Source of the DNA: Escherichia phage KM01
Sequence record: PV018827
DNA length: 64,000 nucleotides
Direction: 5' to 3' (one strand)
Shown here: piece by piece, positions 32,850-33,880 of the stretch
Layout of the letters: the number at the start of each line of letters is the position of its first letter
Position numbering within the stretch: position 1 is the stretch's first letter
The notes under the pieces: model-generated
What the model was told of the DNA's origin: nothing
Seen by the model: the letters and a program-made list of their open reading frames with translations, nothing else
The model's database searches: none
Made by a program: the position numbers and the translations under genes

Positions 32850-33236
32850 TCCCACTCTCCAGTGATTTCCATATCGGCTTTATCTCCTTTCTTAGTAAGG
32901 AGGATTGCTGGTTTATTCTTACTCTTCATATACTCAAACATGTGCATAGAGCCTCTTGACTCTCCATCCCAGAAGACTATCACTGCATCTGCATACCCCC
33001 ATATCTACGTTTCTAAGTATCCCAGCCTTTTTGCCGAGAGTGTTCCATGAAGGAATGAAACGTTTGATGGGTATGTCATTGTGCTTAGCAACAGCCTCTC
33101 CGTGAAGATCTGGCCCTCTTGCACCACCTGATACAACTTCTGAAATCAGCTTGGGGATTTCCTCTGGAAGCAAAGCCCACATCTGAGTAAAAGAATGCCA
33201 GTCTATCGACCGGCTTCCTGCGATTATTACTTTCAT
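32846..33236 (-). pseudogene. SLOG/DUF2493-like Rossmann protein interrupted by a frameshift at a C5/G5 homopolymer
   Basis: N-terminal part (VIIAGSR...VVSGGARGPD...AGILRNVDMG) in one frame; conserved C-terminal part (YADAVIVFWDGESRGS...) in the +1 frame ending in ATGA overlap with downstream ATG; junction at run 32996-33000. Confidence 0.45.
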
Positions 33237-33880
33237 GTAATCAATCCTTGAAACTCTTCTTTATCGAAGTGTTTTTCTACCACATATTCATACAGATCTT
33301 TTAACTCTGCATATCTGCGGTAGAATGTTCCGTGTGACATTCCAATGGTTTTCTGAATGTGATCGTGTGGTATTCCCAAGAAGATCATAGAGAACATATT
33401 GGCTAACTTCTGAGTATCCATCGTATCACTTAAATCTTGGAAGAAGTAGAAGATACGAGACTCCATGAATGGGTCTCCAACAGAATCTTGCTTATCCATA
33501 GCAACCTCTAAAGGACTATCAACCATATCAGGAGTACGGAACATATCAGCCTCTGGAATTGAGTAGATACGACGGTCCCCTACAGTCTGCCTATTTGAAC
33601 GTATAGACCAGATAATATTCTTGACTCGATAAGTCATATGCTCTTGGTCTTTCTCATCCTCTAGGACTCTCTCATCCTGCTTAGCGAAGACAAATCTCCA
33701 AGCATTCAAGAGCACTTCCTGTGCCACATCCTCTGCTTCATGGTAATCCCTGATATCGTACATGAAGAACTTGTGAACCACTTTCCAGTTCACTTTATAA
33801 AACTCTTCATAGTTTGAGATATATTTGATTGGGATTCCATGAATTCGATATCTTGTAGGTGTTGTTTTCTTCGCCATCAT
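33233..33880 (-). CDS. Phage-encoded ECF-like sigma factor
   Basis: 215 aa; region-2-like [17 protein letters not shown] and C-terminal HTH-like region. Confidence 0.6.

Follow-up and report, generated by a model that had tools for sequence, protein, structure and literature searches.

Escherichia phage KM01 (sequence record PV018827) encodes a sigma factor, and the 64,000-nucleotide stretch of its DNA analysed here (the window) raises the question of which promoters this protein reads and through which bases. A preliminary description of the window had singled out a recurrent 9-mer, TAATGTATA, as the promoter motif, an AGACCTA element 14 nt upstream of two copies as a sign of a bipartite promoter, and one plus-strand copy at 36316 that points away from any open reading frame (ORF). 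Our analysis favours, with a probability of roughly 0.8, one explanation for all of these: the window carries the known gp36 system of phage phiEco32, AGACCTA is the -35 element of two of its late promoters, and the copy at 36316 is a seventh promoter with a non-coding transcript. The core of this explanation, gp36 and its TAATGTATA promoters, is already known in detail. The -35 region and the seventh promoter are therefore given most of the space below, after the sigma factor itself.

The sigma factor gp36 and its -10 element

The ORF at 33233-33880 on the minus strand had been taken for a sigma factor gene, and this identity was confirmed. Its product was 213/214 identical, over the full length, to gp36 in PDB 9M7Y (chain F, 'RNA polymerase ECF sigma factor'; E 1.4e-145), and the ORF matched PHROG 1740, 'RNA polymerase sigma factor' (5.6e-46). 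Translation truly starts at the second ATG and yields a protein of 214 amino acids (aa; 33233..33877, minus strand); the mechanically called ORF is one Met longer, as it includes the ATG at 33878-33880. The match to Pfam Sigma70_r2 reached 18.3 bits, below the gathering cut-off of 24, and no region 4 profile of Pfam matched at E values up to 1. The earlier label 'ECF-like' therefore describes an architecture and is unsupported by profile membership in the ECF (group 4) sigma factors; the region 2-like and region 4-like folds of gp36 are known solely from the published structure (PMC12276001).

That structure, an open complex solved by cryo-electron microscopy (cryo-EM) on the promoter P68, explains how the promoter is read. 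The sigma-2-like N-terminal domain of gp36 reads -14A, -13A, -12T and -11G through N95, S91, S94, E79 and H80, and the C-terminal domain sits at -35, where R187 bonds with -37G and Y186 packs on the T opposite -34A; mutating the contacting residues or the contacted bases abolished transcription (PMC12276001). All contact residues were identical in the sigma factor of the window, both for the -10 element (E79, H80, Y83, R84, W90, S91, S94, N95) and for the -35 region (Y186, R187). Among relatives, E79, Y83, W90, S91, S94, N95, Y186 and R187 were invariant down to 54% sigma identity, as was the whole stretch SHGTFYRRY around Y186-R187, and H80 and R84 were altered in the distant relatives (sigma ~54% identical). 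The partner protein gp79 displaces region 4 of the host sigma-70, stabilises the C-terminal domain of gp36 and co-activates it; P26 was transcribed in vitro by core polymerase and gp36 alone, with a 4-fold stimulation by gp79 (PMC12276001). A gp79 homologue of 82 aa was encoded at 53439..53687 (-), with a full-length match to chain G of PDB 9M7Y (E 1.1e-51). Its residues 29-80 also gave weak matches to TAL-effector repeat proteins (E 1e-8 to 3e-4); gp79 is said to resemble no known transcription factor (PMC12276001).

Transcription in the window would thus follow the phiEco32 scheme. After gp79 has displaced sigma-70 region 4 from the host core polymerase, gp36, its C-terminal domain held by gp79, would bind core, read AATGTA at -14..-9 with its N-terminal domain and open the DNA from -11, which would be why tAATGTAtA lies 6-8 nt upstream of the middle and late starts. 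The C-terminal domain would be anchored at -37..-34 of each promoter, on the bases RRNA. The gp36 and gp79 steps of this scheme were shown experimentally on a protein that differs by one residue from that of the window (PMC12276001).

The genomic context is consistent with this assignment. The window belongs to a phiEco32-like coliphage of the genus Kuravirus, and the 6 kb around the sigma gene were 97-98% identical to those of TH06, EK5, SU10 and phiEco32. The phage encodes a T7-like primase-helicase and a family A DNA polymerase. The claim that it lacks an RNA polymerase of its own held as far as it was tested, with no RNA polymerase domain detected by Pfam in the nine largest ORFs of the window. 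ARAGORN found no tRNA or tmRNA gene in the window, and a literature search turned up no Kuravirus transcriptome paper.

A motif scan with positional statistics, as the preliminary description had suggested, found TAATGTATA five times in the window against 0.58 copies expected; none of 100 shuffles reached five. All five exact copies lay on the strands and at the coordinates previously given, namely 8946-8954, 25522-25530 and 36316-36324 on the plus strand and 36244-36252 and 42968-42976 on the minus strand. The one-mismatch copy was also present, as AAATGTATA, with its position corrected from 47504-47513 to 47505-47513 (-). A seventh site, TAATGTAGA at 1532-1540 (+), had been overlooked and represents a third late promoter. 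The published form tAATGTAtA thus covered the five exact copies, AAATGTATA at P68 and TAATGTAGA at P6. The reported intergenic position of the motif was borne out with one reservation: the copy at 25522 overlaps the first ATG of the mechanical ORF 25524-29990. Annotated homologues of this ORF start 15 codons later, corresponding to 25569, and the motif is therefore intergenic.

Three reports describe six gp36-dependent promoters in phiEco32, which precede genes 6, 13, 26, 40, 58 and 68 and carry the single element tAATGTAtA with starts 6-8 nt downstream (PMC4281155, PMC8948821, PMC4331800). The statement that phiEco32 late promoters carry this 9-mer was therefore correct as to the element and too narrow as to its use, given that middle promoters are marked by it as well. 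The window sites at 1532, 8946, 25522, 36252 (-), 42976 (-) and 47513 (-) are the homologues of the six published promoters, and all six precede middle or late genes and share their orientation. The copy at 36316 (+) faces away from all ORFs; co-orientation with genes is a trait of the known promoter set and no mechanistic requirement. The original mapping of the six phiEco32 promoters is reportedly that of Pavlova et al. in 2012.

Positions are numbered with the first base of the 9-mer as -15, so that AATG occupies -14..-11 as in the structure. P68 of the window then reads G-37, G-36, T-35 and A-34, which are the bases contacted by R187 and Y186, and the numbering is thereby validated. Where TAATGT is preceded by TA, as at P26 and at the 36316 promoter of ES17-type genomes, the gp36 element includes the sigma-70 -10 hexamer TATAAT in perfect form, offset by 2 nt. 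This agrees with a published proposal that sigma-70 also uses some of the promoters.

AGACCTA and the -35 region

Both copies of AGACCTA were found where they had been reported, at 8925-8931 and 25501-25507, with exactly 14 nt between either copy and the 9-mer that follows it. They belong to the late promoters P13 (8924..8954, plus strand) and P26 (25500..25530, plus strand), both of which read AAGACCTA at -37..-30, 14 nt and TAATGTATA. The 7-mer as such is not enriched (7 found vs 9.3 expected in the window). P13 and P26 are identical over 9 nt in register, TAAGACCTA, and this exceeds expectation: when seven 30-nt stretches of the window were drawn at random 20,000 times, a pair sharing at least 8 nt in register occurred in 0.9% of draws, and two such pairs never occurred. 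AGACCTA spans -36..-30 of both promoters, over the -35 region contacted by the C-terminal domain of gp36, and is therefore their -35-region element.

The other promoters define what is common to this region. Each of the seven sites combines purines at -37 and -36 with A at -34 and either C or G at -33. RRNA at -37..-34 was present in 7/7 promoters vs 3/40 other AATGTA sites in the window, and each of the seven -35 regions is able to make both contacts seen in the structure, at -37 through purine N7 and at -34 through an A:T pair. Distant phages with a sigma factor ~54% identical carry GGGAC at -37..-33 before TAATGTATA. The suggestion of a bipartite promoter is thus upheld by the 2025 structure and its mutagenesis of -37G and -34A, by the location of AGACCTA at -36..-30 and by the invariance of A-34 across the seven sites. 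These results support a bipartite gp36 promoter with a short -35 core, RRNA at -37..-34, usually G-N-A at -36..-34. What had been proposed for AGACCTA stands in part: it is the -35 element of P13 and P26, and the general -35 core is RRNA. AAGACCTA keeps A-34 and has A instead of G at -36. We infer that it is a conserved variant (AAGA for the commoner RGNA) confined to the late promoters P13 and P26, and no general consensus; its extra conserved bases may set promoter strength, timing or gp79 dependence.

Relatives gathered from IMG/VR, metagenomes and GenBank allowed each promoter to be compared across 6-14 distinct sequences; a metagenome scan with the sigma alignment contributed just 14 loci, most of them near-identical or present in the set beforehand. 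AAGACCTA was present in 7/7 distinct P13 sequences (six from relatives and that of the window), in a region that varies little as a whole. At P26 it was kept in 9/10 distinct sequences, the remaining one having AATACCTA, and TAAgACCTAAGTCCT persisted across three unrelated upstream flanks and two spacer versions. The middle promoters showed which bases survive when the upstream sequence is replaced. P58 (42968..42998, minus strand; AGCAGAGT at -37..-30, 14 nt, TAATGTATA) was represented by 11 distinct sequences with four unrelated upstream contexts, and G-36 and A-34 were the sole invariant upstream bases. Relatives of P40 (36244..36274, minus strand; AGTACTCT at -37..-30, 14 nt, TAATGTATA) had the unrelated -35 contexts AGTAC, AGCAC, GGTAG and TAGAA, all with A-34. 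The set is completed by the middle promoter P68, on which the cryo-EM open complex was formed (47505..47535, minus strand; GGTAGTAG at -37..-30, 14 nt, AAATGTATA), and by the late promoter P6 (1510..1540, plus strand; GGGAGGCT at -37..-30, 14 nt, TAATGTAGA), the counterpart of the published promoter before phiEco32 gene 6 and SU10 CDS 4. In IMG/VR, two copies of AGACCTA-N14-TAATGTATA were found only in Kuravirus-like contigs, with other matches single, as chance predicts; the same held for two copies of GGTAGTA-N15-WAATGTATA.

AGACCTA might instead be bound, as an operator, by a separate activator or repressor of the late genes and not be read by gp36. Such an operator would agree with the occurrence of AGACCTA at two late promoters only, with the lack of G-36 in P13 and P26, and with the conservation of eight bases in AAGACCTA, beyond the 2-4 constrained at other gp36 promoters. 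Nevertheless, the element lies exactly over the DNA occupied by the gp36 C-terminal domain in the open complex, the in vitro activity of P26 with core and gp36 alone and its 4-fold stimulation by gp79 argue against a further regulator, no candidate late regulator is known, and the 7-mer is unenriched elsewhere in the window; we therefore regard an operator as distinctly unlikely. A functionless resemblance, arising by chance or left behind when a promoter cassette was duplicated, would account for the presence of the element at just two promoters and for the relative with AATACCTA at P26, and the P13 region varies so little that its conservation says little. The spacers of P13 and P26 are unrelated, however (3/14 nt identical), which argues against a recent duplication as the source of the shared octamer. 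Together with the probability of 0.009 for sharing at least 8 nt in register and the persistence of the P26 octamer across three unrelated flanks and two spacer versions, this makes a functionless resemblance very improbable.

The assignment of AGACCTA to gp36 itself also has to face contrary observations. A 2022 paper from the promoter-mapping group treated the gp36 promoters as single-element and put the missing -35 element down to the lack of a region 4 homologue. P13 and P26 are without G-36, and P6, late by position, has GGGA, so that AAGACCTA is neither a general late signature nor clearly optimal. In addition, T-38, A-37 and A-36 of P26 form the stop codon of the upstream gene, which thus makes up part of AAGACCTA there.

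Several late promoters overlap or adjoin hairpins. A terminator-like hairpin, GCCTCC-GTT-GGGAGGC plus a T-run, was seen at 1501-1517 (+) directly before P6, and its 3' arm provides the -35 bases of this promoter (GGGA). A similar one, CCCTGCC-TTCG-GGCGGGG plus a T-run, lies at 8895-8912 (+) directly before P13, and the layout of hairpin then promoter was also seen in one distant relative (GGGTGGGAC-TTTT-GTCCTGCCC, then TAATGTATA). At P26, a 15-bp hairpin with a T-run extends over 25509..25555 (+) (GTCCTGCCTTCTATA-ATGTA-TATAGGGGGTAGGAC, then ATTTTTATTT; RNAfold -22.8 kcal/mol), and the -10 element sits in its loop and upper stem. The hairpin has the look of a terminator, at which read-through from the late operon upstream would stop exactly where P26 restarts; transcripts from P26 start inside the 3' arm and are therefore unable to form it. 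In our reading of the aligned sequences, relatives with the other P26 spacer appear to retain the pairing, partly through G-U pairs.

Repeats were seen around the -10 element at several gp36 promoters, including P40 and 36316 (+). The -10 element of P40 is one arm of a 19-bp near-palindrome at 36234-36252 (TTATGTATA-G-TATACATTA), which is the reason for a one-mismatch plus-strand match at 36234. A further site at 22514-22544 (+), GGAATCAG, 14 nt and TAATGTATT, lies inside and co-oriented with the late structural ORF 21799-22851. Apart from a single mismatch in the 9-mer it obeys the bipartite rule, and it may act as a weak late promoter internal to the gene.

A further AGACCTA, at 33953-33959 (-), abuts TAATGTTTA (33944-33959 for the two together) ~65 nt upstream of the sigma gene. 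A function for this copy was rejected, and the match taken as a coincidence, on the grounds that it falls within a macro-domain gene, reads AGGCCTA in SU10 and is absent where that gene is absent. From the upstream sequence and the SU10 paper, the sigma gene's own sigma-70 promoter was read as TGGACA-18-T(A/T)TAAT, nearer the gene.

The probable divergent promoter at 36316 and the non-coding region behind it

As noted previously, the plus-strand copy at 36316 faces no ORF, and it lies outside the published list of promoters. Its full extent is 36294..36324 (+), with GGTAGTAG at -37..-30, 14 nt and TAATGTATA, which makes it a seventh promoter of the gp36 type. It is located in the 315-bp spacer between the gene 40 and gene 41 homologues, divergent from and back-to-back with P40, the two -10 elements being 64 bp apart. 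The site and P68 are identical over 14 nt at -39..-26 (ttGGTAGTAGATAT), including the GGTAGTAG octamer. In 14 distinct sequences from relatives, TGGTAGTA (-38..-31) and TAATGTATAtA were invariant, and the spacer and upstream flank occurred in several unrelated versions. This pattern is exactly what selection on the two promoter elements would be expected to produce. In ES17-type genomes, ~120 bp are inserted between this promoter and P40, and the two are therefore separate modules. The element was intact in 17/18 genomes, and judged from these alignments the promoter is probably complete and under selection. A one-mismatch direct copy, TACTGTATA, follows the 9-mer directly at 36325.

Firing in the middle phase together with P68, as we suppose, the promoter would produce a plus-strand non-coding RNA antisense to the end of the upstream middle operon. 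This RNA would start near 36331 and consist of a 5' hairpin, a conserved block and then an A+T-rich stretch. The predicted hairpin, AUAGC-UGAUAAG-GUUAU, comprises the first 17 nt (36331..36347, plus strand). One of its pairs is C-G, A-U or U-A depending on the lineage, and a second is found either as G-U or as G-C; on the opposite strand, the G-U pairs would correspond to A-C mismatches. The remaining 27 predicted pairs of the transcript never vary and neither support nor contradict the fold.

The segment between the hairpin and the block (36348-36393, with its equivalents in loci L004, L006 and L043) occurred in two unrelated versions of ~46 nt and ~72 nt. Both are bounded by the invariant TTATTGCA and CCGRAAGGGCAGG, with a hairpin possible at the same place in each, and the two versions look like a module exchange by recombination.

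The block itself is a 99-bp stretch at 36394..36492 (+), with a predicted hairpin GCAGG-AGCCA-CCUGC and a long stem of AAAUAGAGAAUUAAGG with CUUUGAUUCUCUAUUU. Its identity was 93-100% in genomes with gp40 and sigma genes at 75-82%, and the block is non-coding because its indels (1 and 2+1 nt) would shift any reading frame. By our reading of the alignment, 7/8 variable columns fall outside the paired positions of the predicted fold. Only one copy of the block is present in the window, and 98 phage records matched a 216-nt query (36285-36500), some of them only over the half that holds the block. Distant relatives with a sigma factor ~54% identical had neither the 99-bp block nor a 36316-type promoter upstream of the gp40 homologue, and the module of promoter and block thus appears to be specific to a Kuravirus-level clade. 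Rfam gave no match in 36100-36900 at permissive thresholds. The predicted transcript showed no similarity to complete E. coli genomes, on which basis a mimic of a host RNA was rejected, and its complementarity to possible trans targets within the window did not exceed 12 nt, which is chance level. A small ORF downstream of the promoter was likewise rejected: the only ones found were TTG-started, 21-32 aa long and located in the swapped module, and the block has frameshifting indels.

Directly after the block, 36490-36549 has a G+C content of 16.7% (83% A+T). The gene 41 homologue (36500-36607, minus strand) lies inside this A+T-rich stretch and encodes a very hydrophobic peptide of 35 aa (MVTYILYFLAFLGIVFLSILIEFGLSKLVNYLGNK). 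Gene 41 is annotated in phiEco32, SU10 and SU7 and absent from Paul and Bas87, and it may not be a real gene.

As to the function of the transcript, a regulatory or antisense RNA is a tentative possibility, and a role in priming or opening a replication origin is doubtful; the probability that remains goes to an incidental or insulating role. If the orphan promoter at 36294-36324 (+) and the block formed an origin, middle-phase transcription by host polymerase under the direction of the phage sigma factor would yield a structured RNA, and the 3' part of this RNA would invade the 83% A+T stretch and prime or open the DNA for the T7-like replisome. The layout of a gene-less promoter followed by an A+T-rich region is present in 36294-36324 and 36490-36549; it is suggestive only, and we hold such an origin to be unlikely.

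Two further explanations would give the site at 36316 a different meaning. It could be a copy of P68 with weak polymerase binding at most and no useful product, the block serving the minus-strand mRNA or the DNA itself. Neither an ORF nor a terminator follows the site, one contig has A in place of G-11, and the block stems could also form in a minus-strand RNA, where a long hairpin is followed by UUUUUAU. However, 14 distinct sequences show no change in either promoter element although spacers and flanks are replaced, which points to selection on the promoter itself, and the hairpin in the first 17 transcribed nt has compensatory changes and G-U pairs that work only on the plus strand. An idle copy of P68 thus seems rather unlikely. 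The transcript could otherwise serve as an antitoxin-like antisense RNA, forming a pair of the type I toxin-antitoxin kind with gene 41, whose peptide is short and very hydrophobic and on whose 3' end the plus-strand transcript would converge. In Paul and Bas87, by contrast, promoter and block are kept and gene 41 is missing, as judged by the annotation and by a diverged sequence after the block, and the next annotated gene is the phosphoesterase; ECBP2 shares this variant post-block sequence. A toxin-antitoxin pair is accordingly a remote prospect.

A non-coding transcript from a seventh promoter remains our preferred explanation, and the following points weigh against it. The metagenome contig ERZ1034915 NODE-75 (L030; minus strand, near locus position 8250) has TAATATATA, in which the contacted G-11 is changed to A; either the promoter may be dispensable or the variant may be an assembly error. 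The promoter is absent from the published set, as judged by secondary descriptions of that set. The start near 36331 is a prediction made with the spacing known for the published promoters, the fold outside the 5' hairpin is supported by invariant pairs only, and a simple scan of 35900-37300 found no intrinsic terminator on either strand.

The SU7 record, in which promoters are annotated, has none on the plus-strand equivalent of the 36316 locus, and a bioinformatic promoter re-analysis scanned only the gene-oriented strand of intergenic regions. In the TAATATATA variant, TATAAT, a perfect -10 hexamer for sigma-70, is left two bases farther upstream.

Comparison with known systems

The gp36 promoters were described as single-element until the 2025 structure showed the -35 contact. 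The comparison presented here adds a -35 consensus, RRNA at -37..-34, with G-36 and A-34 as the sole bases kept where the upstream sequence has been replaced; no prior consensus was found in the literature examined. It also adds two conserved extended variants of the -35 region, which make promoter strength, timing and gp79 dependence testable and could be useful for synthetic biology with gp36 and gp79. The third addition is a conserved promoter without a gene, followed by a non-coding block that is better conserved than the adjacent genes. This module is a candidate regulatory RNA or replication origin of Kuravirus phages, which are under development for therapy.

The primary origin of T7 consists of the promoters phi1.1A/B and an A+T-rich region, and oriF and oriG of T4 consist of a middle promoter and an unwinding element. 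The likeness to the locus at 36316 lies in a phage-specific promoter without a gene, then an A+T-rich stretch, among replication genes. In contrast to these origins, the 36316 (+) promoter would fire against middle transcription, and a conserved, structured block of 99 bp intervenes before the A+T-rich stretch. If the locus were an origin, it would be a counterpart of the T7 phi1.1A/B origin in a phage without its own RNA polymerase.

With the ECF (group 4) sigma factors, gp36 shares an arrangement of two domains, region 2-like and region 4-like, joined by a linker, and a bipartite promoter. It differs in being barely detected by profiles and in having a long and dominant -10-like element and a -35 core of 2-4 bases. 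According to the published structure, its C-terminal domain is also compact, contacts the flap-tip helix in another way and depends on gp79 to be stable. A related phage group is represented by Salmonella phage 7-11, whose sigma factor gp47 likewise directs the host polymerase to bipartite promoters at equivalent genome positions. In contrast to gp36, gp47 uses the consensus GTAAtg-(16)-aCTA and has no gp79 homologue beside it, and the two sigma factors are 15% identical.

The closest system is gp36-gp79 of phiEco32 itself (Xu et al. 2025, PDB 9M7Y), which has the same sigma factor (213/214), gp79, the same six promoter positions and the same tAATGTAtA element. The contacted -37 and -34 bases of P68 are also the same in the window, and no difference was seen for the six promoters. 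Beyond the descriptions of phiEco32, the window and its relatives provide a comparative definition of the -35 region, with RRNA as its core, AAGACCTA as the form shared by P13 and P26 and GGTAGTA as that shared by P68 and the seventh site, and a divergent seventh copy of the promoter without a downstream gene.

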